Shown: positions 13,493-33,843, counted from the stretch's first letter. The stretch is 37,587 nucleotides of DNA from Candidatus Omnitrophota bacterium (GCA_029563245.1 JAKQSG010000059.1:1-37587), one strand, 5' to 3'. Notes: generated by a model from the letters alone, not told the origin. Program-made: numbers and translations.

Positions 13493-13521
13493 TTGACACT
13501 TACCGCGTGAGATTATAAAAT
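13493..13521 (+). promoter_or_regulatory. Near-consensus sigma70 promoter preceding the PKS-like cluster
   Basis: TTGACA (13493-13498), 17-nt spacer, TAAAAT (13516-13521), about 48 nt upstream of the 13570 start. Confidence 0.5.
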
Positions 13522-14862: not shown

Positions 14863-14863
14863 T

Positions 14864-15463
14864 ATGGATAAAGTTAAAACACCATTCCCGAAATTAAAAC
14901 TAACGGTAAGAGGAGTTTATGGCGAATGCTACCACGGTTACAAAAAAGGGGATGAGATTATTCTGGAGGATTTTACGCATCCGCCGGAACATTTCTGCTT
15001 AGGGTTGGTGCATGCTTTATTTCCGGTTATATACGCTTTAAGTTTTGGGGCAAAGTTTGGTTTTCGTGATAATCAAAGGTCTTTATTGGTTACTTGCCCG
15101 GACGGTGGAAAGCTGGAGTTTGAGGCAGAAATATTTAATAAGGATGGAAGCATAGAAAATATCCCTAAGGACCAAAAACATAAAGGACCTAATCCAAAGA
15201 AGATGGTAATTGAGGTGGTGCAGTCAAAAGGAAAATGTACCTTTGGGTATAAGGTAGGAGATAAGTGGGAGACGACCGGTTTAAAATGCGTTCCCGGATT
15301 ATGCGGCGCCGCATTCCATACCGCATTCCCGGCACTATTTGCATTAAACTTCGGGGCAAAGTTCTTTTTTATGAAAGATCCGAATTCAATTGATACGGTA
15401 ACTTGCCCTGACGGAGGCGATATTGTTTTTAAGGTTACCAGGGTAGAAGAGGGGAAGGAATAA
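14864..15463 (+). CDS. Tandem-duplicated TIGR04076-like Cys-rich protein
   Basis: There are two about 80-aa repeats (aa 11-91 and 113-193). Each has C..GYK.GD, ...C...FP..(Y/F)AL.FGAKF and VTCPDGG, which matches my recollection of the small TIGR04076 family. Confidence 0.6.
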   Translation: MDKVKTPFPKLKLTVRGVYGECYHGYKKGDEIILEDFTHPPEHFCLGLVHALFPVIYALSFGAKFGFRDNQRSLLVTCPDGGKLEFEAEIFNKDGSIENIPKDQKHKGPNPKKMVIEVVQSKGKCTFGYKVGDKWETTGLKCVPGLCGAAFHTAFPALFALNFGAKFFFMKDPNSIDTVTCPDGGDIVFKVTRVEEGKE

Positions 15464-15467
15464 TTTT

Positions 15468-16730
15468 ATGAATAAGAGAAGGGTAGTTATCACAGGGATA
15501 GGAGTAATATCCCCTAATGGTATCGGAAAGGATGCATGTTTTAAGGGGATGATTTCGGGTAAATCCGGGGTTTGCCGAGTTGATAATTTTGACGTATCAA
15601 TCTTTAATACTAAGATTGCAGCAGAAGTACGCGATTTTGACCCTTTCAAATTAGGGCTCTCCCATGAAGAAGCTATGCGTATGGACAGATACGTGCAGTT
15701 TGGCGTGGTGGCGGGTAATATGGCGGTTAAGGACAGCGGGTTAGATTTAACCCAAGAAGACCCTCAGCGCATTGGTGTCTGCCTTGCTAATGCAATATGC
15801 GGGACAAAATATATGGAGGAGGAGTTTGCCCTTGTTACGGAAGACGGGAAAAAACCCATTAATCCTTCTTTGGTGCGTCCGGACCTTTATGATGCCGCTA
15901 TGTTTAATACGCCTTCTATTGAGTTGAGCGCTAAATACGGGCTGAAAGGTATCTGTAACACTCTCTCTACAGGTTGTACCGCAGGTACAGACTCTTTGGG
16001 ATTTGGTCTGGAGACTATTCAGGATGGAGAGGAAGATATCATGATTTGCGGTGCGGCTGAGGCCCCCATCACTCCTATTACTTTTGGGGCTTTTGATGTG
16101 GTAAACGTATTATCGTCTAGAAACGATGATCCTCAAAAAGCCTCCAGGCCTTTTGATAATAAGCGTGATGGGTTTGTTTTATCTGAAGGGGCGGGTATTC
16201 TGATTTTAGAAGAATTGAACCATGCCTTAAGACGGAATGCCAGGATATATTGTGAAGTTTTAGGCTTCGGGACAAGCTGCAATGCCTTTCATATGACTGA
16301 TCTTCCTTCTGACGGCGGGGCAATGGTTAGCTGTATCAGCCTTGCCTTAAAAGACGCCCAGGTAAAGCCTGAAGAGATTGATTATATAAATGCCCATGGC
16401 TCTTCTACCAGGATGAATGATATATTTGAGACTAGCGCTTATAAATCTATTTTCGGAGAGTATGCCTATAAACTTCCGATTAGTTCCTTTAAATCGATGA
16501 TCGGGCATCCCTTGGCTGCCGCCAATGCCATTGAAATGACCGTCTGTTCTATGATTTTTGAAAAAAACATCCTTGCCCCGACTATAAATCAGGAAGAAAA
16601 AGATCCTCAATGCGATCTTTATTACATTCCTAATAAGGCAATTGATAAAAAAGTTGATACGATTTTAAAGACAAGCAGCGGATTTTCCGGGATTCATTCA
16701 TCGTTAGTATTAAGGAGATATAATGGATAA
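15468..16730 (+). CDS. Type II PKS-like ketosynthase alpha (beta-ketoacyl-ACP synthase)
   Basis: Active-site LSTGCTAGTDSLG (Cys170, codon TGT 15975-15977), NAHGSSTRMND and SMIGHPLAAA. The STGCT(S/A)G and HGS.T..ND forms look like aromatic PKS KS-alpha rather than FabF (ACA(T/S)G, HGTST). Confidence 0.9.
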   Translation: MNKRRVVITGIGVISPNGIGKDACFKGMISGKSGVCRVDNFDVSIFNTKIAAEVRDFDPFKLGLSHEEAMRMDRYVQFGVVAGNMAVKDSGLDLTQEDPQRIGVCLANAICGTKYMEEEFALVTEDGKKPINPSLVRPDLYDAAMFNTPSIELSAKYGLKGICNTLSTGCTAGTDSLGFGLETIQDGEEDIMICGAAEAPITPITFGAFDVVNVLSSRNDDPQKASRPFDNKRDGFVLSEGAGILILEELNHALRRNARIYCEVLGFGTSCNAFHMTDLPSDGGAMVSCISLALKDAQVKPEEIDYINAHGSSTRMNDIFETSAYKSIFGEYAYKLPISSFKSMIGHPLAAANAIEMTVCSMIFEKNILAPTINQEEKDPQCDLYYIPNKAIDKKVDTILKTSSGFSGIHSSLVLRRYNG

Positions 16731-17952
16731 GATTGCTTTAACCGGAATCGGGGCAGTATCCCCTTCGGGAATAGGTAAGCGCCAGCTTTGGGCAAATATT
16801 AAAAGCGGGCGTTCATTTATAAAAGAGATAACCAGATTTGACGCCTCCAGGTATCCTTCCCATATCGCCGGGCAGATAGATGATCTTGAAAAATACAGTA
16901 CTTTCTCAGAGCGGCTTTTAAAGAAGATTGATGCTTTTTCTCATATGGCCCTGATTGCCTCAGAGCTTGCCTTACAGGATGCAGGTGTCGATATCAAACA
17001 GGAAGATCCTAATCTTGTAGGTATCTTTTTAGGCAATGCCATCGGAGGATGGCTTTATGCCGAAACAGAGCTTCGGGATATGTATATCGAGGGGCGTGAA
17101 GGAGTATCTCCTTATATGGCTTCTGCCTGGTTTCCGGCAGCTCCGCAGGGGCAGGTCTCAATTTACTATGGGATAAAAGGATTTTCCAAGACAGTAGTAG
17201 CGGATCGCGCAAGCTCATTAATGGCTCTTGGTTATGCCAGGAAAATATTGGCTAAGGGTAAATTGAATCTGATCTTATCCGGGGGGATGGAGGCTCCAGT
17301 TTCTCCTTATGCATTATTATGTTGCAATACTTATGGAGGGCTTTCCAGCGATAATCAACATCCGCAGGAAGCCTATCGGCCTTTTGATAAGAGGCGCAGC
17401 GGTTTTGTAATCGGAGAAGGTTCGGGGGTAGTGGTTATGGAGAGTATTGAGAGGGCAAAATCACGCAATGCCAATATCTTGGCTTTAATCTCGGGATACG
17501 GGACAACCTGTGATGGAGTGGATCGTATTAATTCTGCTGTTGATGGAAAGGAGCTAGCCAGGGCAATTAGAATTGCCCTGGAAGATGCCCGGGCAGGAAT
17601 TGATGAAATCGATTATATCAGCTTAGACGGGATAGCTTTAGATATTTGGGATAATTCTGAGGTTGGGGCTATCAGGGAAGTATTTGGAAGCCGCTCAAAA
17701 GATATACCGGTAAGTTGTCCTAAATCTATGTTTGGTAATTTGCTGGGGGCTTCTGGAGTACTGGATATGATTATTGCCATACAGGCGATGGAGCATAGTT
17801 TAATTCCCCCCACGATAAATTTAGACGAGCCCTCAATCGCCGGGCTTAATTATGTTAGTAAGGAAGCAAGAGAACACAGGATTAAAAAGGCGTTGATTAT
17901 ATCCCGGGGAAGGGGAGGGATAAATTCCGCATTAATTATCGAGAAGGCTTAA
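16723..17952 (+). CDS. Ketosynthase beta / chain-length-factor-like subunit with degenerate catalytic triad
   Basis: KS fold, 8-nt overlap with KS-alpha. The positions aligned to Cys/His/His read Arg162 (VVADRASS, codon 17206-17208), Asp (SLDGIA) and Asn (MFGNLLG). Confidence 0.8.
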   Translation: MDKIALTGIGAVSPSGIGKRQLWANIKSGRSFIKEITRFDASRYPSHIAGQIDDLEKYSTFSERLLKKIDAFSHMALIASELALQDAGVDIKQEDPNLVGIFLGNAIGGWLYAETELRDMYIEGREGVSPYMASAWFPAAPQGQVSIYYGIKGFSKTVVADRASSLMALGYARKILAKGKLNLILSGGMEAPVSPYALLCCNTYGGLSSDNQHPQEAYRPFDKRRSGFVIGEGSGVVVMESIERAKSRNANILALISGYGTTCDGVDRINSAVDGKELARAIRIALEDARAGIDEIDYISLDGIALDIWDNSEVGAIREVFGSRSKDIPVSCPKSMFGNLLGASGVLDMIIAIQAMEHSLIPPTINLDEPSIAGLNYVSKEAREHRIKKALIISRGRGGINSALIIEKA

Positions 17953-17964
17953 AAGGAGGATTTA

Positions 17965-19428
17965 ATGAAAATATTATTTGTTATGCCTAAAGTAGGGGCT
18001 TGGGCAACGCATGGGATACACCGTTCTCCCAACCAGCTTTATGCGCACTGGGCAGCATATGTCAGGGATACGCGGGGTTATGCCGATGTTGCGGTTATTG
18101 ATGGTAAGGCTGACCAGCTTTCCATGGAACAATTGGTCGAACAGGTAAAGCAGAAGAGCCCTGATGTGGTTGTTATGGGTGAACAGCTGCACGGCTATGG
18201 CGGATACGGGGTATTGCGTCATTTTAAGGATGCGGCTGTGGAGATTAAGAAAGTTTCGCCTAAGACAAAGATAATTTTCGGAGGTTTATGGTATTCGGCT
18301 ATGCCGGTACCTACCTTGGAAGAAAATCCTGCAGTTGATTTTGTAGTTATGGGCGAAGAAGAATCTTTCGGTGATTTGATTGAGGCTATTGACAAGAATA
18401 GGCCATTAAAAGACGTAGGGGGTGTTACTTCCCGTATAGATGGGCAGATTGTCATGGGGCCGCATAAACCGCTTATGCCGGATTTAGATAAGCTGCCTCT
18501 TCCAGCCTATGATTTATTTCCTATGGATAAATATGTTGGGCATACTTATTGGAAGCCTTTTGTTGATATGGTTACCTCCCGTGGATGTCCTTCAGCATGT
18601 ACATTCTGTTATGAGTGGGACCAGTTTGACCCGCGTTCCCCTTCCGATTTCTTGAAGTGGCGCGCTAAATCTCCAGAGAGGGTTATGGAGGAGCTAAACC
18701 TGCTGCATAAGAAATACGGAGTCAAAGTTGTAGTTATCCAGGATGACAATTTTAATGTTGACCCTAAAAGGGTGCAGAAGTTCTGCGAACTTAAAAAGGC
18801 ATCTAACAATCCGATTAAATGGGTGTCTTTAGGCAGGGCTATTGATTGGGTGAATTGCGAGCCTATACTTCCGCTTATGAAGGAGAATGGTTTATTTATG
18901 GGAGTTTTTGGTATTGAGGTGACGACTCAATCAGAGCTAAAGAAGATCGCCAAAGGTATTACTCTGGATCAAATCAAGAAGACCATTGAAATCCTGCGTA
19001 AAAATGACATTGCTATTGTTGCCGATATAATGATGGGTTTTGACTATGACACGGAGGCTATCATCAAGCAGCGTTTTGAATTTACTGACGCAGTTGATCC
19101 GGATATCATGTGGGTAGGCTATGTTACTCCTGCTCCGAATTCGCCGATGTGGCGGATTGCTTTGAAAAAGAACTGGATTGATCCAAGGAAGGTAGATTTT
19201 AGCACCTGGGATTTCCTGCATCCGGTAATCCCAACGGATTATCTTACTACGGAAGACCTGGGCAGGTTAGGTTCTTGGTGCATGCGGGAATTCTTCTCAA
19301 AGCCAGGGCGCATTAATAGGATTATGGAGAGTAACTTCGATCCCTTGGCAAAGATTTGCTTCAAAGATGTAATGGATGGTATTAATAAATGGGAAGCAGC
19401 TGCCACAAAGGGAGAGGTACAGATATAG
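17965..19428 (+). CDS. B12-binding domain radical SAM enzyme (class B)
   Basis: N-terminal cobalamin-binding Rossmann-like domain; CPSACTFC (CX3CX2C, nt 18586-18609); 487 aa, typical of class B rSAM enzymes. Confidence 0.85.
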   Translation: MKILFVMPKVGAWATHGIHRSPNQLYAHWAAYVRDTRGYADVAVIDGKADQLSMEQLVEQVKQKSPDVVVMGEQLHGYGGYGVLRHFKDAAVEIKKVSPKTKIIFGGLWYSAMPVPTLEENPAVDFVVMGEEESFGDLIEAIDKNRPLKDVGGVTSRIDGQIVMGPHKPLMPDLDKLPLPAYDLFPMDKYVGHTYWKPFVDMVTSRGCPSACTFCYEWDQFDPRSPSDFLKWRAKSPERVMEELNLLHKKYGVKVVVIQDDNFNVDPKRVQKFCELKKASNNPIKWVSLGRAIDWVNCEPILPLMKENGLFMGVFGIEVTTQSELKKIAKGITLDQIKKTIEILRKNDIAIVADIMMGFDYDTEAIIKQRFEFTDAVDPDIMWVGYVTPAPNSPMWRIALKKNWIDPRKVDFSTWDFLHPVIPTDYLTTEDLGRLGSWCMREFFSKPGRINRIMESNFDPLAKICFKDVMDGINKWEAAATKGEVQI

Positions 19429-19439
19429 GGAGGTAATTT

Positions 19440-19670
19440 ATGGATACAAAATCAAAGCTTAAGGAAGTTTTGGCGGATTTATTAAAGGTTAAGCCCGAAG
19501 AGTTAAAAGACGATTTATCCTTGCAGGATAGCATCGGAGTCGATTCAACAGAGATGGTAGAATCAGTTATTGCCATAGAGAAGGCTTTTGGGGTTAAGCT
19601 AAGCCCGAGGGAGATTACAAAGTCATCAAGCATCAATGATATCGAGAAGGTAATCCTTTCAAAGGCGTAA
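19440..19670 (+). CDS. Acyl carrier protein
   Basis: 76 aa with a four-helix ACP pattern. Phosphopantetheine site GVDSTEMVE (Ser36, codon 19545-19547). Confidence 0.85.
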   Translation: MDTKSKLKEVLADLLKVKPEELKDDLSLQDSIGVDSTEMVESVIAIEKAFGVKLSPREITKSSSINDIEKVILSKA

Positions 19671-19705
19671 TGAACTTCGTATTAGGCAAATTGCAGGAGT
19701 GATGC

Positions 19706-20506
19706 ATGCAGATTATTGACTTGAGTCTGCCGATTGATGAAAAAGGATTTGAAGTCCATAAGGTTGATATCGAGCGGATAACCCATAAGGCGGGGGTTGA
19801 AAAATTTAACCGTGTGATTATGGGTAAGACCTTAAGGGGCAAGATTGGTTACCTTTTGGGAAGAAGAATCCTTAAGCCCGTAGACCTTCCGGATGGAGAA
19901 TTCCTCTCCCTTGAGATAGTGCATTCCCCCGTGCATGTAGGAACACACCTTGATTACTCCTTCCATTATGGCACTCGCTCTGAGGGGAGAGAATCTAAGA
20001 CCGCTGATGAGATACCTCTTGAATATTGCTATCAGAATGCAGTGCGCTTAGATTTACGCCACAAAAAAGCAGCTGAAGAGATAACCGCTGAAGACTTAGA
20101 AACCGCCTTAAAAAAAGAAGATTATATTTTAAAACCTTTTGATATTATATTAATCTGGACTGGTGCCGATAAATTTTACGGGACTCCCAGGTATTTTACG
20201 GATTATCCTGGCATAGGTACAACGGCGATAGACTTTATTATTGACCATGGGGTTAAGATTTTTGGCGTGGATACTATGGGTATTGACCGCCCTTATAAAT
20301 TTATGCTTAAGGAATTCATCGATTCAAAAGACCCCGCAAAGTTTTATCCGGCGCATTTTTACGGCAGAAAAAGAGAATTTATTCATATAGAAAGACTGGG
20401 TAATTTAGAAAGCCTTCCTCGGGCATCAGGATTTAAGGTTGCTTGCTTTCCGGTACGGATACGCCAGACCGGGGCTGCCTGGTCAAGGGTAGTTGCCCTT
20501 GTGTAA
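19706..20506 (+). CDS. Putative cyclase family protein (PF04199-type; kynurenine formamidase-like fold)
   Basis: HSPVHVGTHLDYSFH matches the HxGTHxDxPxH metal-binding motif of this family. 266 aa. Confidence 0.75.
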   Translation: MQIIDLSLPIDEKGFEVHKVDIERITHKAGVEKFNRVIMGKTLRGKIGYLLGRRILKPVDLPDGEFLSLEIVHSPVHVGTHLDYSFHYGTRSEGRESKTADEIPLEYCYQNAVRLDLRHKKAAEEITAEDLETALKKEDYILKPFDIILIWTGADKFYGTPRYFTDYPGIGTTAIDFIIDHGVKIFGVDTMGIDRPYKFMLKEFIDSKDPAKFYPAHFYGRKREFIHIERLGNLESLPRASGFKVACFPVRIRQTGAAWSRVVALV

Positions 20507-20542
20507 AATTTGAATCGGTAATGTATGTAAAAGGAGGACTGT

Positions 20543-20983
20543 ATGGGACATACCTGTAATTCGATTATAATCAATGCTCCTTATGGCTTGGTTTTCGATA
20601 TATCCAATGACATCCCCCGCTGGATAGATTTATTCGGCAGTGAATACAAGAAAGCCGAGATTATCAGTAAGGAAGGGGACAAGATCACCTTCCGCCTAAC
20701 TGATGATGAGGATAAATCATGGGTCTCCTGGAGGCTTTTATTCAAAGATGAATATTTTGCTTATGCCGAAAGGTTTGAACCTAAATTTCCTTTTATCTAC
20801 ATGAAGATTATCTGGCTTTATACCTTAAAGCCTGAAGGGGTGGAACTTACCTGGATTCAGCATTTCGAGATGGATGAAAAGGCGAAGTTTACCGATAAAG
20901 AGGTGGAAGGGTTTATTAATAAGCACTCCCAGGAGAACCTTGCTATTTTTAAAAGGGTAATCGAAAAAGAAGCGCAGCTTTGA
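20543..20983 (+). CDS. SRPBCC-fold polyketide aromatase/cyclase (TcmN/WhiE-ORFVI-like mono-domain ARO/CYC)
   Basis: 146 aa. RW..LF.SEY, FRLT.DED..W.SWR and PF.YM.I.W.Y....G...W.Q.F.M resemble my recollection of the TcmN ARO/CYC N-domain. Confidence 0.6.
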   Translation: MGHTCNSIIINAPYGLVFDISNDIPRWIDLFGSEYKKAEIISKEGDKITFRLTDDEDKSWVSWRLLFKDEYFAYAERFEPKFPFIYMKIIWLYTLKPEGVELTWIQHFEMDEKAKFTDKEVEGFINKHSQENLAIFKRVIEKEAQL

Positions 20984-22098
20984 AGAAGACCACCTTTTTT
21001 ATATTATGTTTAGAGGGAGCGGTTTTATCATTTAATGTCGCTGCAGCCGCAGCCTTGATACCTTCGATAGCAAAGGAGTTTGCTCTTTCTCAGTTTATAG
21101 TTGGTAAGGTCATATGGATTTATATGTTGACTTACGGTCTGGCTGCTTTAATCTACGGACCCTTAGTGCGTAAATTCGACGCGCGTAAAATAGAGTTAAC
21201 CTGTATTTTCTTGTTTGCTCTTGCCAATCTTCTGGCGGGCTTATCCGGTAATATAAATACCCTATTCTTGGGAAGGTTCTTTATGGGGTTATTTGGAGCC
21301 TCTGTTATACCGCTTGGTTTAATCTTAATCGGTAAACACAAAGCTAAAGAAAGAAGAGGTAAGTATATCGGGATATTTTTCGGCCTGACCTTTGTGGCTT
21401 CTCTTTTAGGTTTATTTTTAAGTGGGGTTATTTATTGGCGCTGGATATTCTTGATACCGGCTTTATCAGGGTTTATTCTCTGGATAGCCATGTATTTTTA
21501 CCTCCCTAGCTTCAAGGAAGATACAGGAGGATTTAAGTTTAATTACTTTAGGGTGTTTAATGATAAGGCGGCATTTAAGATATTAGCTTATATATTTTTT
21601 ATCAGTCTTATTTATCATGCTATACAACAATGGATGGGAGTATATTTCTCTACCCAGTTAAAGTATACCCAGTTTATTATCAGTATGTTGATAACCTTAA
21701 CTTCTCTAAGCGGTATAGTTGGTGAGTTTTGGGGAGGGTTGCTTGCGGATTCGCTGGGGAGAAGCAGGATAGTTAATATAGGTATAGGATTTATGATCTT
21801 TAGTATCTTCGCGCTCATTTTTAAATTACCTTTTTTTGCCTTTATTCTGATTATGGTAATTTGGGGGTTAGGGTGGACCTTTAACCATGTTGGCCTAGCG
21901 TCCATGCTTACCGATTTGCCTAAAGAATTTCTAAATGAGGCGGCGAGTTTGAACAGCGCAGTGCGTTTTATCTCCGGAGGCATAGGGGTGAGTTTAGGGG
22001 GATTGATTATGTCGCGCAGTTTTAGCTTAGGGTTTATTATTTTCGGTTTTGGGCTTTTGTTTTTATTGTTTTCGGGGAGATTAATTAAAGCTAATTAA
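20980..22098 (+). CDS. MFS transporter
   Basis: 372 aa, about 12 TM helices, GRFFMGLFGA-type MFS motif. TTG start overlaps the preceding stop. Confidence 0.8.
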   Translation: MKKTTFFILCLEGAVLSFNVAAAAALIPSIAKEFALSQFIVGKVIWIYMLTYGLAALIYGPLVRKFDARKIELTCIFLFALANLLAGLSGNINTLFLGRFFMGLFGASVIPLGLILIGKHKAKERRGKYIGIFFGLTFVASLLGLFLSGVIYWRWIFLIPALSGFILWIAMYFYLPSFKEDTGGFKFNYFRVFNDKAAFKILAYIFFISLIYHAIQQWMGVYFSTQLKYTQFIISMLITLTSLSGIVGEFWGGLLADSLGRSRIVNIGIGFMIFSIFALIFKLPFFAFILIMVIWGLGWTFNHVGLASMLTDLPKEFLNEAASLNSAVRFISGGIGVSLGGLIMSRSFSLGFIIFGFGLLFLLFSGRLIKAN

Positions 22099-22116
22099 TA
22101 CTAAGGGGGGATATTC

Positions 22117-22893
22117 ATGGGAGAAGAGCTTAAGGGGAAGGTTGCTATTGTTACAGGGGCTAGCCGGGGCATAGGTAAATCTCTGGCTTTAACTGCGGCA
22201 AGCCTAGGTATAAACTTAACGATCGCAGCACGCAACGAAGGTCCGTTAAAAGAGGCTGCAGATGAAATTTCCAAGAAATATAATGTAGAGGTCCTTGCTT
22301 TACCTTGCGATGTAATGAAATTGTCAGATTTAGAGAACTTAGCCAAAAAGACAAAAGAAAAATTCTCGCGGGTGGATATACTGATTAATTGTGCAGGCGT
22401 TTCTAGCCAGTATCCGTTTCAAGATCAGCCGATCGAAGACTTAGAGAAGCTTGCGCATACTAATTATTTAGGTTATGTTCGCCTTATCCGTTTGGTAATT
22501 AATGATATGATTAAGCAGAAGTCCGGGGCAATTATCAATATTGTCTCCGGATCTACGCTTGTAGACCCGGTACCGAGAAGTTTTATAGTGTATAGTTCGC
22601 TAAAGGTAGGGTTGCGCGCTTTTTCTAAGGGGTTATTTTGGGAATTGCGGGATCACGGCATTAAGGTTACCTCGATTCTTCCCGGAGTAACGGATACGGA
22701 CCTTACCGGCAAACTGGGTAATGTTACCAGCGATACCTCGAGGTTAATGTCGACTAAGGCTATCGAAGATGCCGTAAGGTTTGCGCTGACAGTCCCGGCC
22801 AATGTCTGTCCTTTGGAGATATCGGTCATTAATCAGCAGACACCTTGGGTGGCCCCGGTTATTCCGTTTAAACAGCAGCATCCGGATAAATAA
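22117..22893 (+). CDS. Short-chain dehydrogenase/reductase (putative ketoreductase)
   Basis: TGASRGIG cofactor motif, NCAG, catalytic YSSLK (YxxxK). 258 aa. Confidence 0.9.
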   Translation: MGEELKGKVAIVTGASRGIGKSLALTAASLGINLTIAARNEGPLKEAADEISKKYNVEVLALPCDVMKLSDLENLAKKTKEKFSRVDILINCAGVSSQYPFQDQPIEDLEKLAHTNYLGYVRLIRLVINDMIKQKSGAIINIVSGSTLVDPVPRSFIVYSSLKVGLRAFSKGLFWELRDHGIKVTSILPGVTDTDLTGKLGNVTSDTSRLMSTKAIEDAVRFALTVPANVCPLEISVINQQTPWVAPVIPFKQQHPDK

Positions 22894-22931
22894 GTTATTG
22901 ATTATAAAATATTTGAAAAACAGGAGGAAGA

Positions 22932-23540
22932 ATGAAAAAGGCTGGCTTGCTGGTAGCGTTAATTCTGGTTTTTTCCGTTGTTTCGTTTGCTCAGGGAGAC
23001 AATCTTATAATTGATGATTTTGAGACTCCCATAATCAAAGGATTGGACGGTACTATTGATTACGGTTCGGGTAACGGTTCTTCTGTGGAGGTATCATCAG
23101 AACCTAAGATAAAATATTCTAAAGATTCGTCATTAAAGGTAGTTTACAATGCTGTTGCGGGCGGATATATGTGGATTGCCCGAGGTTTTGACCTGGACGC
23201 TCAGAATGCCGGCTGGTTAGTTGATCCCCAGGATATCATCTGGGATGATTACAGCGCGCTAGCCTTCTATATGTACGGATCAGATTCAAAGAATAGGATA
23301 GCTGTTGATGTTAAGGATAGCGGTAATGAGGTGTGGCGTTTTATTATAAATGATGATTTTAACGGCTGGAGAGAAGTAGTGTGTCCGTTTGAACAATTTG
23401 CTGTACGGGATGATTGGCAGCCGGAGTCATCGGATAAGAACTCAATCATAAATTTTCCTCTGAAGAGCTACCAGTTTGAGCCATTGCCTGAATCAAGCGG
23501 GACCCTTTATTTTGACAGGGTGGAGTTGATAAAGAAATGA
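22932..23540 (+). CDS. Secreted beta-sandwich protein (CIA30/CBM11-like?)
   Basis: Signal peptide MKKAGLLVALILVFSVVSFAQG, then IIDDFE...; beta-rich, Trp/Asp-rich sequence. The family call is tentative. Confidence 0.45.
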   Translation: MKKAGLLVALILVFSVVSFAQGDNLIIDDFETPIIKGLDGTIDYGSGNGSSVEVSSEPKIKYSKDSSLKVVYNAVAGGYMWIARGFDLDAQNAGWLVDPQDIIWDDYSALAFYMYGSDSKNRIAVDVKDSGNEVWRFIINDDFNGWREVVCPFEQFAVRDDWQPESSDKNSIINFPLKSYQFEPLPESSGTLYFDRVELIKK

Positions 23541-23932
23541 TGGATAGGAGAGAGGTTAAGAATTTAAAAAAACGCTATCTTATATGGTTCTATAAGAGCG
23601 CTAAAGAATCATTGGATAAGATCGAGCGCAAGTTCACGCAGGTTGAGGTTGACAGGTTTATCCTTAAGGAGTTAAAGTCAAGGCTTAAGGATTCCTCTGC
23701 GGGTAAATTCATAAGGCACTTTGAAGAATATATAGAGAAAAAAGAGAAGGATGGTTTAGGGTTGAAATTTGAGGATAAGAAGTTTAAGCCTGATTATCTG
23801 TTTATCGTTGCTAAATTGCGCGCTATTGAAAAGGCCATTGTAAAAGAATTGGGCAGGAAGGCGCTTGAGGAGATCAAGCTTCTCTATGAGATAGAGATGA
23901 CTGAACGCATATTAGGGAGCAGGGAACATTAA
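23537..23932 (+). CDS. Hypothetical protein (highly charged, helical)
   Basis: 131-aa ORF overlapping both neighbours (4 nt upstream, 1 nt downstream). No recognisable motif. Confidence 0.5.
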   Translation: MMDRREVKNLKKRYLIWFYKSAKESLDKIERKFTQVEVDRFILKELKSRLKDSSAGKFIRHFEEYIEKKEKDGLGLKFEDKKFKPDYLFIVAKLRAIEKAIVKELGRKALEEIKLLYEIEMTERILGSREH

Positions 23933-24837
23933 TGGTCATTGATGCACATAGCCACTGGTTACCGGAAGGCATTATTAATAATGCTCATTTTTATCATAAG
24001 GGATGGGGGGAGATAGAGTCTCAACTTAGGGTTATGGATGAGGCAGGCGTTAGTAAGTCTGTGTTATCCTATCCTACATCCGATGCCCATTTAAGATTAG
24101 GGAGCATATCCGAAGTTGTCCGTATATTTAATGATAATGTAAGCAGAATAATAGAAAAATACCCGGATAGATTTATCGGGGCAGCCATACTTCCGATTGA
24201 TCATGAGCCTGACATGATTAAGGAGTTTAGGCGCTCAACCGAAGATCTGGGTTTTAAGGCGATATCCCTGGCGACTAGTTACAACGGGGTTTACCTGGAT
24301 GATTCTAGATTCATTCAGGTCTATAAAATAGCACAGGATAAAAATATTCCGATCTTTGTGCATTCCCAGATTGTAAATCCCATTGGTTTTGAACGGGTTA
24401 AGGACCCGCTTCTTACCCCGGTAATTGAATATATCTTTGATACTACTATTTGTATCGGCAAGCTTTTGGTCTCTGGTATTCTGCGGGATTACGGGGTAAA
24501 ATTCATCTTTGGCTACTTCGGCGGGGTAGTGCCTTATTTAGCCGGAAGATTCGATTCAACATATCAGATGTTGCGTTCAATGGATTTTGTTGAAGATTTA
24601 AAAGGCAAGCCTACGGATTATTTAAAGAACATTTATGTTGATACTTCGGGAGATAAAACCGAGGCAAATTTCAACGCAGCTATTGAGTTGCTAGGCCCAG
24701 GGCATATTTTATGGGGGAGCGACTATCCGGCGAAAAAGGACCCTTCTGCCAGTATCCAGGCAATCAGGGATTTGAAGATATCCCAAGAGGATAAGGATAA
24801 TATTCTCGGAATCAATTTGTCAAAGCTTATATCTTAA
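23932..24837 (+). CDS. Amidohydrolase_2 family protein (ACMSD/LigW-type metal-dependent hydrolase/decarboxylase)
   Basis: N-terminal VIDAHSHW (HxH) and C-terminal WGSDYP motifs of the PF04909-type TIM-barrel family. Confidence 0.8.
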   Translation: MVIDAHSHWLPEGIINNAHFYHKGWGEIESQLRVMDEAGVSKSVLSYPTSDAHLRLGSISEVVRIFNDNVSRIIEKYPDRFIGAAILPIDHEPDMIKEFRRSTEDLGFKAISLATSYNGVYLDDSRFIQVYKIAQDKNIPIFVHSQIVNPIGFERVKDPLLTPVIEYIFDTTICIGKLLVSGILRDYGVKFIFGYFGGVVPYLAGRFDSTYQMLRSMDFVEDLKGKPTDYLKNIYVDTSGDKTEANFNAAIELLGPGHILWGSDYPAKKDPSASIQAIRDLKISQEDKDNILGINLSKLIS

Positions 24838-24851
24838 AAGGAGAAATTAAT

Positions 24852-25601
24852 ATGCAGATGCAGAAAGAGGTACATTTAACAGGCAAGGATCTGACGAATA
24901 TGGTACAGCTTAGAGCGCAGGATGTAGGTAAATATGCAATAGTACCCGGGCCAAGAGATAGGCTGGATGTTCTATTGAAGAAGTTTGATAACCCGGTGAA
25001 GAATTTTACCTTTATGGAATATTCTATGTATACTGGTATGTTTGAAGGGATAAGGTTAACCGCGATTAACGGAGGGAGGTTTTCTACCGACACCTCCATT
25101 ACTACTGAAGTTATGTGCAATGCCCAGATTAATAATATTATTCGAGTCGGTACCGCCGGCTCTTTAGATGAAAGTATTAAGGTCGGAGACATATTCGTAG
25201 TAGATGAGGTTATCCGCGGCGATGGGGTTACGCCTTATTATGTAGATAAAGATTTTAAAACATTTGCCGACAAAAGAATAGCTGATACCCTATATGAAGT
25301 AGCAAAGGGTATGGGTGTTAATGTGCACCGTGGCAAGGCCTGGACAACAGATGCGCTTTTAAGGGAGACCCGCGAGATAGTTGAGGAAAAGCGCAAGGAG
25401 GGGGCCCTGGTGGTTGATATGGTCTCTTCGACCCTTTTGACTATTGCCCAGACCTATAATATTAAAGCTGGTTCAGTCTTGGCGGTGAGCGATAATGTGG
25501 TTACGGGCGAGATGGGTTTCATGAACCCGTTGTATTATATGGCAGAGGCAAGTATCCTAAAGATTGCCTTGGAGACAGTAAAAAAACTAGAGGGAAAATG
25601 A
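24852..25601 (+). CDS. PNP/UDP family nucleoside phosphorylase
   Basis: IRVGTAGS, GDIFVVDEVIRGDG and VVDMVSS (EME-like position) match the hexameric Udp/DeoD-type nucleoside phosphorylase layout. Confidence 0.8.
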   Translation: MQMQKEVHLTGKDLTNMVQLRAQDVGKYAIVPGPRDRLDVLLKKFDNPVKNFTFMEYSMYTGMFEGIRLTAINGGRFSTDTSITTEVMCNAQINNIIRVGTAGSLDESIKVGDIFVVDEVIRGDGVTPYYVDKDFKTFADKRIADTLYEVAKGMGVNVHRGKAWTTDALLRETREIVEEKRKEGALVVDMVSSTLLTIAQTYNIKAGSVLAVSDNVVTGEMGFMNPLYYMAEASILKIALETVKKLEGK

Positions 25602-26524
25602 AATTTTCTCCGCTATTTTGGCCAATCCAGTTAAAAGGAAAGATTATTTACATACTCGATGAGACTAAACTTCCGCAGGAGCTTGCCTATATAAAGGCGC
25701 GTAATTACCGGCAGGCCTGCAAGGCAATAAAGGATATGAAGACTCGTGCGGTTGGACAGGTACTTCTGGTGATGTATATTTTTCTTCAGCTGATTAAGCA
25801 GGGGAGGGGCAAGGAGCTGAAAAGAGTTTCCGCGGCGATTAATAAAACCCGCCCAACGTTATCATTTAAGTTTTTAACCGATATGGTATTAAACTGGGCA
25901 AAAGGCAAAGCGCCTCTGGAAGAATGTATATTAGGTTTTCTCGAAGGTTTAAAATATAGCAGGTTTGCGCAGGCAGAAGAAGCAGCAAGGTTATTAAAGG
26001 ATGGGGATGTTGTCTTAACCCATTGCAACATAAGCGGACTTATGCCTTTAATCGCAGCTATAGCCAAGAAAGAGCACAAAGCTATAAAATTCTTTGCTAC
26101 CGAGACGCGCCCTTATATGCAGGGCTCTAGGCTTACTGCCTGGGAGTTAAAAAGAGCGGGTTTTGATGTTACATTAATTACGGATAATATGGTAGCTTCG
26201 GTAATGTCGCTGAAGAAAATAAATAAGGTAATTGTAGGAGCAGATCATCTGGCCTTAAACGGAGATATTGCCAATAAGATCGGAACATATCAGATTGCGG
26301 TTGTGGCTAAGTATTTTAAGATTCCCTTTTATGTTATATGCCCCCCTGCCTCGGATAAAAAAAGCGGCAAGGAGATAAAGATAGAAATTCGCCCGGATAA
26401 GGAGATGCTGGAATACCAGGGACTAAGGCTTGCTCCTAAAGGTGCCAAAGGCTATTATCCTGCTTTTGATATTACTCCGGATAATTTAATCACCAAACAC
26501 ATCCGCATGGAGATTAAAAGATGA
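25598..26524 (+). CDS. eIF-2B alpha/beta/delta-like sugar-1-phosphate isomerase (MtnA / 5-deoxyribose-1-P isomerase-like)
   Basis: VLTHCN, ATETRPYMQGSRLTAWEL, LITDNM and VGADHLALNGDIANKIGTYQIAVVAKYFKIPFYV match MtnA-family signatures. The N-terminal RGAPAIG block is divergent (TRAVGQV). Confidence 0.75.
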   Translation: MKFSPLFWPIQLKGKIIYILDETKLPQELAYIKARNYRQACKAIKDMKTRAVGQVLLVMYIFLQLIKQGRGKELKRVSAAINKTRPTLSFKFLTDMVLNWAKGKAPLEECILGFLEGLKYSRFAQAEEAARLLKDGDVVLTHCNISGLMPLIAAIAKKEHKAIKFFATETRPYMQGSRLTAWELKRAGFDVTLITDNMVASVMSLKKINKVIVGADHLALNGDIANKIGTYQIAVVAKYFKIPFYVICPPASDKKSGKEIKIEIRPDKEMLEYQGLRLAPKGAKGYYPAFDITPDNLITKHIRMEIKR

Positions 26525-27522
26525 TTTTTGGAAAAGAGCTTAAGTTAAGAAAGGAAATAATAAAGATAGGCAGCCGGCTTCATGAGTCCAGGCTTGCGGT
26601 AGCTAAATCCGGTAATATTAGTGCTCGCCTGGATGATAAAAATATACTTATTACCGCAACCTCAACCGCTTTGGGGGATCTAAGCTATAGAGATATCGTG
26701 AAGGTAAATTTAGATACCGGGAAGGTGTATTCTTCTGTTAAGCCAAGCTCAGAATTGCCGCTTCACTCCTTAGTTTATAAAAACTTTAAGTCGCAGGTAG
26801 TAATACATGCCCATCCTCCCCTGATTAACGGTTATTTTGCGGTAACTTCTGATCTGAAGGCATTGACCTTCGAGACAAAATTTTATTTAGGCACTGTTCC
26901 GGTTGTTGAGCAGGATACTCCGACGGTGGTAAACGCCCAGCCGGTTATTGCTGCACTTAAAACGAATAATCTCGTGGTATTAAAAAACCACGGGGTAGTG
27001 GCCTTGGCAGATAAATTTTACGATGCCTTAAGCCTTATTGAGGCTTTAGAAGAGGCAGTGCGTACTGCGTCCATAGCAAGAATTTTCAAAAACGATATTC
27101 TTGATGATCTGGATAAGGCGTTAAAATCAGATTTAACGCTAAATTTAAGCCTGCCTATGTTTTCAATGGAACATATACAGGCAATTGTTGATCTGGTTAA
27201 TAAGGATGAGTTGATTGCCAGAAAAGGCGAAGAGTTGAATCTTACCGTAAAGCTGGCGATCAAGCTCGACGGATCGGATAAGGTTTATAAGTTTAACTTT
27301 GAAAAAGGAAAAATTGTAAGGCTTGACCTGGACGCGGACGCCCCGTTTGTTATTTCCGCGCCCCGGGAAGTCTGGGAGCAGGTATTCTTAGGAAAATTGG
27401 ATTCTTTTGTTGCCGTGACCCAGGGGAAGATGAAGTTATCCGGACAGTTAGGGCAGCTCTCAAAATGGTATGTACCATTTACCAGGCTTTTTGCTTTATT
27501 TAAGGAAGTTAAAATACGATGA
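26521..27522 (+). CDS. Class II aldolase/adducin-family protein fused to a C-terminal SCP2-like domain
   Basis: Aldolase part: GNISAR, SSELPLH (catalytic Glu), VIHAHPP and NHGVV (metal His ligands). The C-terminal region of about 110 aa (...GKLDSFVAVTQGKMKLSGQLGQLSKW...) resembles SCP2 sterol-carrier domains. Confidence 0.75.
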   Translation: MIFGKELKLRKEIIKIGSRLHESRLAVAKSGNISARLDDKNILITATSTALGDLSYRDIVKVNLDTGKVYSSVKPSSELPLHSLVYKNFKSQVVIHAHPPLINGYFAVTSDLKALTFETKFYLGTVPVVEQDTPTVVNAQPVIAALKTNNLVVLKNHGVVALADKFYDALSLIEALEEAVRTASIARIFKNDILDDLDKALKSDLTLNLSLPMFSMEHIQAIVDLVNKDELIARKGEELNLTVKLAIKLDGSDKVYKFNFEKGKIVRLDLDADAPFVISAPREVWEQVFLGKLDSFVAVTQGKMKLSGQLGQLSKWYVPFTRLFALFKEVKIR

Positions 27523-29003
27523 ATTGTGTTCCTTTATATATAAACGGAGAGTTTATCGAAACTAGGGAGAGGCAGAATGTCCTTAATCCCTCTACGGGCA
27601 AGGTTATTGCCCAGGTTTTTCTTGCTTCAGAAAAAGAAATTGACCTGGCTATTGAGAGCGCCCGGAAGGCTTTTGACAAAGGATTATGGTCGGGTTTGCC
27701 GCCTTTGGAGCGTAAGGCGGTTATTCTTAGGATTGCCCAGGGTATCCTTAATAAGGCAGGAGAGCTGGCAAGGATTGAAACAGAGAGTACCGGTAAACCT
27801 ATAAAAGAGACGACTTTTATGGATGTGCCTTCTGCTGCTAAGACTTTTGAGTTTGCCGCTAATAATCTTGAAGCTTATCTTGCTGATGAAGCTTTAACTC
27901 CTGCGGAAGAGGCAGGAGCGGTTTTATTGCGCGAGCCGGTAGGGGTAGTAGCTTTAATTATCCCGTGGAATTACCCGCTTTTAATTGCTTCATGGAAGCT
28001 GGCTTCTGCCCTTGCAGCGGGCAATACCGTAATATTAAAGCCTTCCAGCATAACCCCGCTTACTGCTTTTGAATTAGGCAAGATTATTCATGATGCAGGA
28101 ATGCCTCCCGGGGTGGTGAATATTATCAATGCAAGCGGGGCAAATTCCGGGCAGGTACTTTGCTGCGATAAGAGAATAGATATGGTTTCCTTTACCGGCA
28201 GCCTCGAAGTTGGCAAAGAAATCCTTAGGTATACATCTTCAAGCGTTAAGAAGCTTATTCTGGAGTTGGGAGGCAAATCTGCAAGTTTGATTTTTGCGGA
28301 TGTGGATATCGAAACAGCAGTCAACAGTTCTCTTTGTTCGGTTTTCTTAAATCAAGGACAGATGTGTGCGGCTATGTCGCGCATCTTTGTCCAGGAAAAG
28401 ATCTACGACCAATTTATCGCTAGTTTTGTAAGTAAGGCTAAGGCTATAAAATTAGGTTTATCGGATAACCATGAGACCCAAATGGGCCCCTTAGTTACCG
28501 ATAGCCAGCGCAAGAAAATTATTGCCTACCTGGAGAAGGCTAAGACAGAGGGGGCAAGAATTTTGTGTGGCGGCAAGATACCTCAGGATGCGGAGCTTAA
28601 AAACGGGTATTTCTTTGAGCCTACGGTTATCGGCAATGTCAAACCGCATATGCATATATTTAAAGAAGAGGTTTTTGGGCCGGTAACTATAGTTGGAAGT
28701 TTTTCTGATGCCAAGGAGGCAGTGGAGCTGGCTAATCATTCTGATTTTGGCCTGGCGGCTTGTATCTGGAGTAAAGACCTAGTGTTTGCTGAAGAAGTGG
28801 CTAAGAAGATTAATGCCGGGACAATATGGATAAATACCTACGGCATGTTTTATAACCAGCTTCCTTACGGCGGGTTCAAGCAGAGCGGTTTTGGCAAGGA
28901 GCTGGGCCGGGAGGGCCTTTTAGAGTATACCCGGCTAAAGAATGTAATAATTGATCATTCAAATGAGGGTAAGCCTTTAGTTAGCTATTGGTACGGTTTT
29001 TAA
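27519..29003 (+). CDS. NAD(P)+-dependent aldehyde dehydrogenase
   Basis: 494 aa with ELGGKS, the catalytic Cys in FLNQGQMCAAMSR, and EEVFGPV. Confidence 0.95.
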   Translation: MNCVPLYINGEFIETRERQNVLNPSTGKVIAQVFLASEKEIDLAIESARKAFDKGLWSGLPPLERKAVILRIAQGILNKAGELARIETESTGKPIKETTFMDVPSAAKTFEFAANNLEAYLADEALTPAEEAGAVLLREPVGVVALIIPWNYPLLIASWKLASALAAGNTVILKPSSITPLTAFELGKIIHDAGMPPGVVNIINASGANSGQVLCCDKRIDMVSFTGSLEVGKEILRYTSSSVKKLILELGGKSASLIFADVDIETAVNSSLCSVFLNQGQMCAAMSRIFVQEKIYDQFIASFVSKAKAIKLGLSDNHETQMGPLVTDSQRKKIIAYLEKAKTEGARILCGGKIPQDAELKNGYFFEPTVIGNVKPHMHIFKEEVFGPVTIVGSFSDAKEAVELANHSDFGLAACIWSKDLVFAEEVAKKINAGTIWINTYGMFYNQLPYGGFKQSGFGKELGREGLLEYTRLKNVIIDHSNEGKPLVSYWYGF

Positions 29004-29732: not shown

Positions 29733-29735
29733 AAT

Positions 29736-30578: not shown

Positions 30579-30605
30579 GCTGTATTTAATTTAAAGGTTT
30601 AATGC

Positions 30606-32337: not shown

Positions 32338-33843
32338 ATGCAGATATTAAAGATTCTAAGAGACCAGGCAAGCATTAATCCGGACAAGGTCGCGGTTATT
32401 TTCAGGGATGAAGAAATAACGTTGAAGAAATTACAGGAGAGATATCTTGCGCTGGCAAGCAGCCTTAAGAAAATAGGGGTAGAGAAGGGGGATAGGGTAG
32501 CTTTGTATCTTCCTAACTGGCCGGAGTATATTTATAGTTACTTGGCGATATGGGCGCTAGGGGCAGTAGCTGTACCCCTGGATTTCATGCTTACATCGGA
32601 TGAACTCTCTTCATGCCTTATGCATTCTGAGGCTAAGGTTTTGATAATAAAGACTAAGGCTACGCTGAATTTAGCCACCCTTAAGGAAAGATTACCCTGC
32701 TTAAAAACGATAATAACTTGTCAGGATAGCCAGGAGGGGCACTTATTCTTTAACGATTGTTTGGATAATGTCGGCAACGAAAAGATTGATACCGACATCC
32801 AAGGAAAGGATTGCGCGATAATCTTTTATACCTCAGGTACAACCGGAAGGCCCAAGGGGGTATTAATAAATTATAGCCAGCTTTTAGCCCCTCCTAAGTC
32901 CATGGAGTTTTTCGTAAATTCGGATTTAAGCCAGAAAGATACGGCGCTTTGCGCGTTACCTTTCTCTCACCTGGGAGGGCTTATTTATATTCAGAATACA
33001 ATATGTTTTTCCTTAAGGCTTATCTTAATGGAGCGTTTTATACCTCTTGAATTCTTAAAGAATATTGCCAAGCATAAGGTTAATTTCTTTTGGATAGTGC
33101 CCTCTATGTATTATGCCTTATTACAATTAAAAGAGTTTGAAAGCTTTGATTTAACCTCTTTGCGCTGGATTGTGACATTCGGGGCCTCAAACTCTCCCGA
33201 TGCATTACGCAGGTTCCATCAATTTTGTCCCAAGGCCCATCTTTTAAACGGATGGGGCATGACCGAGACTAATGCGCCTACCGCAGTATTGCCTATGGGT
33301 TCTGATAAGATTGAGAGTGTGGGAAAGCCTGCGCCGTGGATAGAGATAAAGATTTTCGATGATGCCGACCAAGAATTAAGCGCGGGGGTGATAGGAGAAG
33401 TGGTAGTTAAAAGTTGGGTTGTTACCGATGGATATTATAGAGATGCTAAGCTTACCGCGGAGAGTATGCGTAATGGGTGGTTCCATACCGGTGACTTGGG
33501 TAAATTTGACTCGCAGGGGTATCTTTATATTGTCGGCAGGAAGAAAGAGATGATTAAGGTGGGAGGGGAAATTGTTTTCGAACCGGAGGTAGAGGCAGCG
33601 ATACAGAAGAATGAGTCTGTGCTGGAGGTGGCGGTCGTGGGAGTTCCAGATAAATTAAGAGGCGAAGTGCCCAAGGCTTTCATAGTTACGAAAGAGGGGA
33701 AGCCCATTTCAGCAGAAGACCTGCGTTATTTTTTAAGGCAACACCTTGCCCATTTCAAGATTCCGCATTATTTTGTATTTAAAGACGCACTTCCCAAAAA
33801 CCGCGCCGGTAAGGTTGACAAAGAACAACTTCGCTGCCAATAA
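32338..33843 (+). CDS. AMP-dependent acyl-CoA synthetase/ligase (fatty-acid-CoA ligase-like)
   Basis: AMP-binding motif IFYTSGTTGRPKGV, GWGMTET, HTGDLG and the C-terminal PKNRAGKV. Confidence 0.9.
   Translation: MQILKILRDQASINPDKVAVIFRDEEITLKKLQERYLALASSLKKIGVEKGDRVALYLPNWPEYIYSYLAIWALGAVAVPLDFMLTSDELSSCLMHSEAKVLIIKTKATLNLATLKERLPCLKTIITCQDSQEGHLFFNDCLDNVGNEKIDTDIQGKDCAIIFYTSGTTGRPKGVLINYSQLLAPPKSMEFFVNSDLSQKDTALCALPFSHLGGLIYIQNTICFSLRLILMERFIPLEFLKNIAKHKVNFFWIVPSMYYALLQLKEFESFDLTSLRWIVTFGASNSPDALRRFHQFCPKAHLLNGWGMTETNAPTAVLPMGSDKIESVGKPAPWIEIKIFDDADQELSAGVIGEVVVKSWVVTDGYYRDAKLTAESMRNGWFHTGDLGKFDSQGYLYIVGRKKEMIKVGGEIVFEPEVEAAIQKNESVLEVAVVGVPDKLRGEVPKAFIVTKEGKPISAEDLRYFLRQHLAHFKIPHYFVFKDALPKNRAGKVDKEQLRCQ

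Follow-up and report, generated by a model that had tools for sequence, protein, structure and literature searches.

A phosphorylase-isomerase-aldolase-dehydrogenase gene row that accompanies a B12 radical SAM cluster in Omnitrophota

What do four overlapping genes for nucleoside and sugar-phosphate enzymes do beside a biosynthetic cluster? The genes lie at positions 24,852 to 29,003 of a 37,587-nucleotide stretch of DNA from a Candidatus Omnitrophota bacterium (GCA_029563245.1 JAKQSG010000059.1:1-37587), which was analysed as a whole and is called the window here. A preliminary description of this DNA had read them as a module of the dihydroxyacetone phosphate (DHAP) shunt ending in an aldehyde dehydrogenase (ALDH) and, by implication, as a self-contained unit salvaging the by-products of S-adenosylmethionine (SAM) enzymes in general. 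The first half of that reading, the enzyme logic, was supported by the protein families and their catalytic residues, but the second half, general salvage, was not. The module is an accessory dedicated to one biosynthetic cluster and inherited together with it, and not the cell's general salvage route for SAM by-products.

The four genes and their predicted products

The row comprises four open reading frames (ORFs), listed with their lengths in amino acids (aa) and their Pfam matches:

24852..25601, + strand: divergent purine-type nucleoside phosphorylase, 'D-M-V' family, 249 aa (PNP_UDP_1, PF01048, 1.5e-32)
25598..26524, + strand: truncated MtnA-like sugar-1-phosphate isomerase, 308 aa (IF-2B, 5.6e-55)
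26521..27522, + strand: predicted class II aldolase (residues 1-190), disordered linker (191-208) and SCP2 domain (~210-333)
27519..29003, + strand: predicted hydrolytic NAD(P)+ aldehyde dehydrogenase, 494 aa (Aldedh, 3.8e-164)

The coordinates and the families PNP_UDP_1, IF-2B, Aldolase_II and Aldedh agree with the preliminary description, and the three features that it had singled out as atypical (a phosphorylase resembling Udp and DeoD rather than MtnP, a divergent isomerase N-terminus and a terminal ALDH) were all borne out; 0/4 of the proteins reached an NCBIfam equivalog cut-off. The ATGA junctions that it had reported were found at all three internal boundaries, where start and stop codons overlap by 4 nucleotides (nt). 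Overlaps of this length are common in the compact window (6/34 same-strand junctions), so that three in succession are only mildly unusual. Because of this, the stronger argument for a gene unit is the conserved order, which recurs at 64-93% protein identity in 54 related loci. Upstream, a 14-nt gap with an AAGGAG ribosome-binding site separates the phosphorylase gene from an Amidohydro_2 gene, and downstream a 6-nt gap is followed by plsC. A promoter and terminator scan, whose match counts were not above those of shuffled sequence, found no intergenic terminator-like sites between 13855 and 29003; from this, the overlaps and the short gaps we infer co-transcription.

The phosphorylase scored best against the NCBIfam model for Udp (110 bits against a cut-off of 280), with DeoD also among the best, and the same scan gave no match to an MtnP/MTAP model. 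Alignment to three E. coli enzymes (DeoD, Udp and MtnN) shows that R37, R98 and T101 retain the phosphate ligands Arg24, Arg87 and Ser90 of DeoD, and that S213-D214 retains the Asp (DeoD Asp204) that protonates purine N7. The uracil-recognition insert of Udp (Gln166/Arg168) is missing, and D189-M190-V191 stands where DeoD, Udp and MtnN have E-M-E. All orthologues, down to 36% identity, share these active-site traits. With equivalents of Arg24, Arg87, Ser90 and Asp204 present, the gene product is likely a purine phosphorylase. A uridine phosphorylase was ruled out by the missing insert and the purine-type Ser-Asp motif, and an MtnN-like nucleosidase (a hydrolase) is unlikely, given the retained phosphate ligands and a cluster without a kinase.

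In the isomerase, the catalytic residues C143 (THCN) and D216 (GADH) align with Cys160 and Asp240 of B. subtilis MtnA. MtnA models gave 223-243 bits where their cut-offs require 271-279; the protein passed only the broad subfamily model TIGR00524 (200.8 bits against a cut-off of 185.85). Set beside the genome's canonical MtnA, it has a divergent N-terminal domain and, in all orthologues, a shortened C-terminus. How the isomerase and the aldolase relate to DrdI, DrdA, Ald2 and MtnB was judged by model scores and fold matches, not by trees.

Some distant versions of the module contain an extra ORF of ~160 aa (L063:9119-9598 and L067:10333-10818, - strand), located between the isomerase or radical SAM gene and the aldolase gene. 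It resembles the middle of the IF-2B/MtnA fold (PF01008 positions 125-214) and may pair with the truncated isomerase as a second subunit. The window has no such ORF; second weak isomerase matches were also seen in L061, L062 and L072.

The third gene encodes a fusion, and neither its SCP2 domain nor the acyl-CoA-type ligase that travels with the module (see below) had appeared in the preliminary description. Pfam matched Aldolase_II (2.1e-33) and SCP2 (3.5e-5; 24.5 bits against a cut-off of 21.3). The catalytic and zinc residues of FucA (E73, H92, H94, H155) are kept as E78, H96, H98 and H157, and its phosphate-binding set (G28, N29, S71, S72) is also conserved. The best NCBIfam model was an unnamed archaeal 'aldolase' (103 bits, cut-off 203). 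An AlphaFold2 model of the whole protein had a mean confidence (pLDDT) of 84, and the fold of the aldolase domain was about equally close to YgbL, FucA and B. thuringiensis DrdA (6BTD), with a template modelling (TM) score of ~0.8. The C-terminal domain modelled alone reached a pLDDT of 92, and 38/38 significant Foldseek matches to it in the PDB were SCP2 folds, led by Thermus SCP2 (TM 0.81) with UbiJ next. By these models the domain is a true SCP2 lipid-binding fold. It is kept in every full-length orthologue down to 35% identity, and the fusion is the only Aldolase_II protein in its own genome and in five near-complete relatives. No published aldolase-SCP2 fusion was found in the literature searched.

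Two groups of known proteins help to place this fusion. In E. coli, too, a class II aldolase is paired with an NAD+-dependent ALDH that oxidises the released aldehyde: FucA, whose catalytic residues are those of the fusion, and AldA. FucA differs in sequence (~26% identity), in having Tyr113 where Phe occurs in all members of the aldolase-SCP2 family, and in its C-terminal tail, which is replaced here by the linker and SCP2; the fucose branch also starts from a free sugar, whereas the module would start from a nucleoside. SCP2 folds also occur in fusions or helpers such as UbiJ (UbiJ-SCP2 ranked 4-11 in Foldseek), the alkylsulfatases SdsA1/Pisa1 and MFE-2. In those proteins SCP2 presents or holds a hydrophobic substrate.

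Aldolase-only remnants of ~200 aa, 53% identical and lacking SCP2, were found at L073 (G222:C7), L074 (G236:C6), L075 (G179:C63) and G297:C42. They sit between carB and rlmN, which is the cluster's site in the window, in genomes of the same family without the cluster; two contain an in-frame TAA, and they look like decay after cluster loss.

The ALDH scored best on models for betaine-, aminobutyr- and phenylacetaldehyde dehydrogenases, all below their cut-offs (518 bits against 669 for betaine-aldehyde dehydrogenase). It keeps N151, E249 (ELGGK), C283 (GQMC) and the EEVFGP motif; from the first three residues it is predicted to be hydrolytic, giving a free acid and not a coenzyme A (CoA) ester.

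The intact catalytic residues of the isomerase, aldolase and dehydrogenase support the enzyme logic of the DHAP shunt, and the four genes are thus best read as encoding a row of phosphorylase, sugar-1-phosphate isomerase, aldolase and ALDH. In such a row, the phosphorylase would split a 5'-deoxy- or 5'-substituted adenosine-type nucleoside into base and pentose-1-phosphate, the MtnA-type isomerase would convert the latter to pentulose-1-phosphate, the zinc-dependent class II aldolase would cleave this to DHAP and an aldehyde, and the ALDH would oxidise the aldehyde to the free acid. The disposal of 5-deoxyribose by the DHAP shunt is known to use MtnP, or MtnN with MtnK/DrdK, followed by MtnA/DrdI and Ald2/DrdA (PMC6079011, PMC10986504), and both the DrdK/I/A order and variants started by a phosphorylase are established (PMC6079011). 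The likeness extends from nucleoside or sugar through pentose-1-phosphate and pentulose-1-phosphate to DHAP and aldehyde, with equal folds, and to the presence of paralogues beside a canonical MtnA, as with Mtn and Drd in Bacillus. What differs here is the phosphorylase of Udp/DeoD lineage with D-M-V in place of E-M-E, the truncated isomerase, the SCP2 fusion, and the extension by ALDH and ligase.

The same scores bear on two other uses of these folds: classical methionine salvage, in which the aldolase-fold protein would be an MtnB dehydratase, and the archaeal-type pentose-bisphosphate pathway. Either had been named as an outcome that would overturn the DHAP-shunt reading, and neither was found. 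The protein gave weak matches to MtnB models (57-65 bits), and the isomerase scored 120 bits on the ribose-1,5-bisphosphate isomerase model TIGR00511, whose cut-off is 314 and whose score is about half that on the MtnA models. An ALDH follows the aldolase, and ARD/MtnD (PF03079) was found neither in the bacterium's own genome (73% complete) nor in five relatives (94-96% complete), which agree with it on both ARD and Aldolase_II. In the own genome, at its 73% completeness, neither RuBisCO or RuBisCO-like protein (PF00016) nor, by tblastn, a homologue of AMP/thymidine phosphorylase (DeoA) was found. Both pathways are extremely unlikely and were ruled out on these model scores and missing enzymes. 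As a separate observation that bears on the consumption of methylthioribulose-1-phosphate, canonical MtnA is almost universal in Omnitrophota, most of the genomes that have it gave no match to the module aldolase, and ARD was not found in the six genomes covered here.

Linkage to a B12 radical SAM cluster across Omnitrophota

Upstream of the row lie the genes of the cluster, including the enzyme on which the question of substrate turns:

13855..24837, + strand: upstream cluster (Pfam)
17965..19428, + strand: B12-binding radical SAM enzyme (B12-binding and Radical_SAM domains)

Two radical SAM genes had been reported in this array and both were confirmed, the B12-type gene above and rlmN at 33849-34880. 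The cluster reads, in order, an ApbA-like reductase, a Cys-rich protein, two ketosynthases (KS-alpha and KS-beta), the radical SAM enzyme, an acyl carrier protein (ACP) region and a cyclase, then SRPBCC, MFS and SDR proteins, a CBM11-like protein, an orphan ORF and Amidohydro_2. Across the 54 loci the same order holds as far as each flank extends, and the product is probably a lipid. The radical SAM enzyme matched the NCBIfam models BchE (200 bits) and HpnJ (152 bits) best, both far below cut-off, and the scan gave no match to HpnH or MqnE.

The row of isomerase, aldolase and ALDH directly follows this same cluster in 54/54 related loci found with the aldolase. To survey the phylum, an even sample of 301 Omnitrophota genomes was used. 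KS-alpha orthologues were present in 71/301 genomes and full-length aldolase-SCP2 in 79, with 69 carrying both (Fisher p = 2.5e-54); phosphorylase orthologues were present in 80/301, of which 76 also had the aldolase. The linkage survives changes of gene order. At L060-62 the row is reshuffled to ligase-phosphorylase-isomerase-aldolase-ALDH-radical SAM-ApbA-KS, at L063/64, in genomes without any KS-alpha orthologue, it reads ligase-phosphorylase-isomerase-radical SAM-aldolase, and at L067 it reads ligase-radical SAM-phosphorylase-isomerase-aldolase. The B12 radical SAM enzyme is thus the module's constant partner and adjoins it in each of these arrangements, including in lineages without ketosynthases. 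A general DHAP-shunt salvage unit would be a free-standing cluster of three genes, often with sugar transporters; in contrast, the module was never free-standing here and always accompanied the B12 radical SAM cluster.

The KS-less version of the cluster spans L063:3790-15382 and L067:3076-15586 and comprises a PadR regulator (L063), ligase, phosphorylase, isomerase, B12 radical SAM enzyme, a small ORF and aldolase-SCP2. The rows at L063 and L067 go on with an MMPL/RND pump, which has a sterol-sensing-like domain, a LolA-like/DUF1329 protein and DUF1302. Such a set of genes points to export of a lipid to the envelope. The ALDH directly follows the aldolase in nearly all KS-bearing loci; among KS-less loci it is distant in L067, and none was seen beside the aldolase in L063 and L064.

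These distributions were set against the idea of a general housekeeping DHAP shunt, which would clear 5'-deoxyadenosine and 5'-methylthioadenosine from all SAM enzymes and whose position in the cluster would be incidental. The enzyme logic fits such a role, and the genome has at least 22 radical SAM genes; moreover, with aldolase-SCP2 as its only class II aldolase, the canonical MtnP and MtnA may feed this enzyme too. However, the module is not present in ~220/301 (~73%) of the genomes, and genomes of the same family hold 21-45 radical SAM genes without it and 15-43 with it; the counts being alike, the overall radical SAM load does not explain the module. Canonical MtnA is kept in 242/301 genomes irrespective of the cluster. 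In the own genome it lies on another contig between tatD and thiL (G000:C134:5654-6703; L001:1369-2421) and scores 400 bits on TIGR00512, and the C-terminal part of a canonical MtnP was found at a contig end; no homologue of E. coli MtnN was found in this genome. The five relatives each have an MtnP-type and a cluster-type PNP_UDP_1 gene, with two further weaker matches in one of them. With the cluster link surviving several rearrangements, we consider a housekeeping role quite unlikely, and the general salvage proposed earlier was not upheld.

Candidate substrates and the fate of the acid

The substrate was approached through the enzymes around the module, which include a probable fifth member:

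32338..33843, + strand: acyl-CoA/AMP ligase (AMP-binding, 1e-84)

This ligase directly follows the ALDH in ~20 loci and directly precedes the phosphorylase in distant lineages. Its best NCBIfam model was the long-chain-fatty-acid-CoA ligase subfamily NF004837 (441 bits), and its A5 motif reads WGMTE, with Gly at the position where, we assume, acetyl-CoA synthetase has Trp. The ligase could activate the acid released by the ALDH.

B12 radical SAM enzymes give 5'-deoxyadenosine as a co-product. The explanation that we tentatively prefer, while giving it somewhat less than an even chance, is that this compound, as released by the B12 radical SAM enzyme of the cluster itself, is the substrate of the module, which removes it and recovers its carbon. 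The radical SAM enzyme would release 5'-deoxyadenosine stoichiometrically, and the module, running from nucleoside towards acid, would relieve product inhibition and return the carbon as DHAP and acetate. SCP2 would hold the aldolase at the lipid-handling machinery, and the linkage, proof against rearrangement, would reflect a dedicated by-product sink for a high-flux step. Having MtnP and MtnA a second time in the genome would then be like the Mtn/Drd pairs of paralogues in Bacillus. Were this so, a by-product disposal route would be hard-wired into one biosynthetic cluster, and in this widespread, uncultured phylum the B12 radical SAM step would carry a bulk flux on the scale of lipids.

Several observations weigh against 5'-deoxyadenosine as the substrate. 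A canonical MtnP/MtnA pair, able in principle to handle this compound, is already present, and the module phosphorylase is not MtnP-like: it has lost one phosphate-binding Arg (DeoD Arg43, here M55), and Glu181, which binds the ribose 2'- and 3'-hydroxyls, is replaced by V191 in every orthologue. In the isomerase, a 7-residue deletion relative to the genome's canonical MtnA directly follows the catalytic Cys in all orthologues. SCP2, being lipid-binding, has no obvious task in the cleavage of a small sugar phosphate. Furthermore, the ligase belongs with the fatty-acid ligases and not with those for acetate, and acetaldehyde would be recovered wastefully if it were first oxidised to a free acid that then costs ATP to re-activate. 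Taken together, four of these features (SCP2, the altered active sites of phosphorylase and isomerase, the type of ligase and the wasteful route) keep alive two readings in which the substrate is a larger or a modified nucleoside.

In the first of these, the radical SAM enzyme would act as HpnH and MqnE do and couple the adenosyl moiety, through its 5'-carbon, to a hydrophobic intermediate (acyl, polyketide or lipid). The phosphorylase would then remove adenine, the isomerase and SCP2-aldolase would cut off C1-C3 as DHAP, and the ALDH and ligase would turn the two-carbon stub into an activated acid, so that SAM gives the lipid two carbons. The aldolase is suggestive in this respect, as a true SCP2 fold by prediction stands in place of the FucA C-terminal tail and Tyr113 is Phe in all members; that tail we take to cover the aldehyde end of the active site. 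The remodelled active sites of phosphorylase and isomerase, the long-chain-type ligase with its open pocket, and the MMPL/RND, LolA-like and DUF1302 export genes of the KS-less versions point the same way. There is also a precedent in hopanoid side-chain synthesis, where HpnH, a radical SAM enzyme, adenosylates the lipid, HpnG, a PNP-family enzyme, removes adenine, and HpnN is an MMPL exporter (PMC13459092).

The hopanoid system resembles the present one in combining, around a lipid, a radical SAM enzyme with a PNP-superfamily enzyme and, in the KS-less relatives, an MMPL-type exporter. It differs in having no isomerase, aldolase or ALDH, and the radical SAM enzyme here is of the B12 type. Membership in the HpnH/HpnG system itself was ruled out on model scores, the phosphorylase reaching 45 bits on the HpnG model TIGR03468 (cut-off 187) and the radical SAM enzyme giving no match to HpnH. 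The absence of HpnH and MqnE model matches also tells against an adenosyl adduct more broadly, since the cluster's only radical SAM enzyme is B12-binding and BchE/HpnJ-like. To our knowledge, adenosylating enzymes are not B12-dependent. The adduct is moreover purely putative, and SCP2 could serve localisation alone. We therefore regard trimming of an adenosyl graft as unlikely, if not strikingly so. Its broader corollary is likewise unlikely: in anaerobes, a membrane lipid or polyketide would receive two carbons from SAM by attachment through C5' and subsequent stripping of adenine and DHAP. If true, lipid or polyketide assembly would draw carbon from the ribose of SAM, and this biochemistry would be new.

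In the second reading, the substrate would be a small 5'-modified nucleoside, such as an adenosine that the B12 radical SAM enzyme has methylated at C5' or altered otherwise, and the resulting short acid (for example lactate or a substituted acetate) would be activated by the ligase as a starter or extender for the ketosynthases. The ALDH and ligase together would yield such an activated acid, the ligase adjoins the phosphorylase in distant lineages, and the aldolase and ALDH also score on models for archaeal fuculose-1-phosphate aldolase and lactaldehyde dehydrogenase. Two known routes are comparable. In the fluoroacetate pathway of Streptomyces cattleya and Nocardia brasiliensis, the phosphorylase FlB, 5-fluoro-5-deoxyribose-phosphate (5-FDRP) isomerase, an aldolase and fluoroacetaldehyde dehydrogenase act in turn (PMC3999930); the order of the four enzymes is identical to that of the module, ALDH included, and the last yields a substituted acetate from a 5'-substituted 5'-deoxyadenosine. 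That pathway has an MTAP-like phosphorylase, scattered genes and no SCP2, whereas here the genes overlap and no fluorinase or chlorinase match was found in the cluster. In salinosporamide biosynthesis, SAM-derived 5'-chloro-5'-deoxyadenosine feeds the polyketide synthase extender chloroethylmalonyl-CoA by way of SalL, SalT and later steps (PMC9516700). Phosphorolysis of a 5'-substituted 5'-deoxyadenosine occurs there too, and the ribose carbons of this compound become an activated acid for the polyketide synthase, but the downstream steps are a dehydrogenase and a dehydratase in place of isomerase and aldolase, and no halogenase match was found in the cluster here.

What counts against a small modified nucleoside is that the module persists in lineages without ketosynthases and that SCP2 is left unexplained. 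Nor did the Pfam scan give a family match to a halogenase or SAM-cleaving enzyme among the cluster ORFs, to which this search was confined, the rest of the genome not being searched. With the nucleoside itself postulated throughout, we judge supply of a building block from such a compound doubtful.

A last alternative is ordinary catabolism of purine nucleosides, in which ribose-1-phosphate would pass through ribulose-1-phosphate to DHAP and glycolaldehyde, and the latter to glycolate. The Udp/DeoD lineage of the phosphorylase, as opposed to an MtnP type, fits this scheme, as does a conserved N-terminal His two positions from the aligned His8 of Udp, which is presumably the 5'-hydroxyl ligand. 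The aldolase also matched a haloarchaeal ribulose-1-phosphate aldolase model weakly (68 bits), and no homologues of E. coli DeoB or DeoC were found in the own genome. However, the tight link to a radical SAM enzyme would be unexpected, the ribose-binding Glu is lost, and SCP2 is again unexplained. Isomerases of the MtnA type act, as far as is known, on 5-deoxy and 5-thio sugars. This scheme thus appears very unlikely.

No publication describing the module, in Omnitrophota or otherwise, or the D-M-V phosphorylase was found in the literature searched. Both that phosphorylase and the aldolase-SCP2 fusion form well-defined families, found in roughly one in four of the sampled Omnitrophota genomes, and the module provides a way into identifying what the cluster makes.

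Neighbouring genes and variant loci

The cluster may be of the type that antiSMASH labels 'ladderane' in Omnitrophota (PMC9902471); a comparative-genomics paper on ladderanes (PMC2649909) makes no mention of a phosphorylase, isomerase or aldolase. The best sigma-70-like match in the region (13493-13521, TTGACA-17 nt-TAAAAT, 11/12) precedes the ApbA-like first cluster gene, within a gap of 668 nt, and may be the operon promoter, the number of such matches overall not exceeding that in shuffled sequence.

The Amidohydro_2 gene (ACMSD/LigW-type, 23932-24837) ends 14 nt upstream of the phosphorylase gene. It travels with the module in most KS-bearing loci, at 63-89% identity and at 38-51% in distant clades, and could belong to either half of the cluster. 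Between ALDH and ligase, plsC, purU, a DUF748/AsmA-like gene and an unnamed ORF (29010-32335) occur in the window and its closest relatives; because the ligase directly follows the ALDH in other loci, this block looks inserted.

In one clade, a class IV aminotransferase (IlvE/PabC-like; Aminotran_4, PF01063) occupies the phosphorylase slot between amidohydrolase and isomerase (L019:7225-8055, L037:8223-9029, L044:8216-9022, L047:8043-8894, L033:6941-7828 and L025:878-1702), and the radical SAM gene has moved to directly before the amidohydrolase. That the phosphorylase is dispensable in this clade was ruled out, a 40-42% identical phosphorylase being encoded upstream of KS-alpha in those genomes. 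Finally, records of metagenome-assembled genomes titled 'uncultured Planctomycetales/Planctomycetia bacterium' carry the cluster at 64-80% identity (L005, L014, L016, L017, L027, L043, L044, L048 and L051), which looks like a difference of labelling and not of biology.

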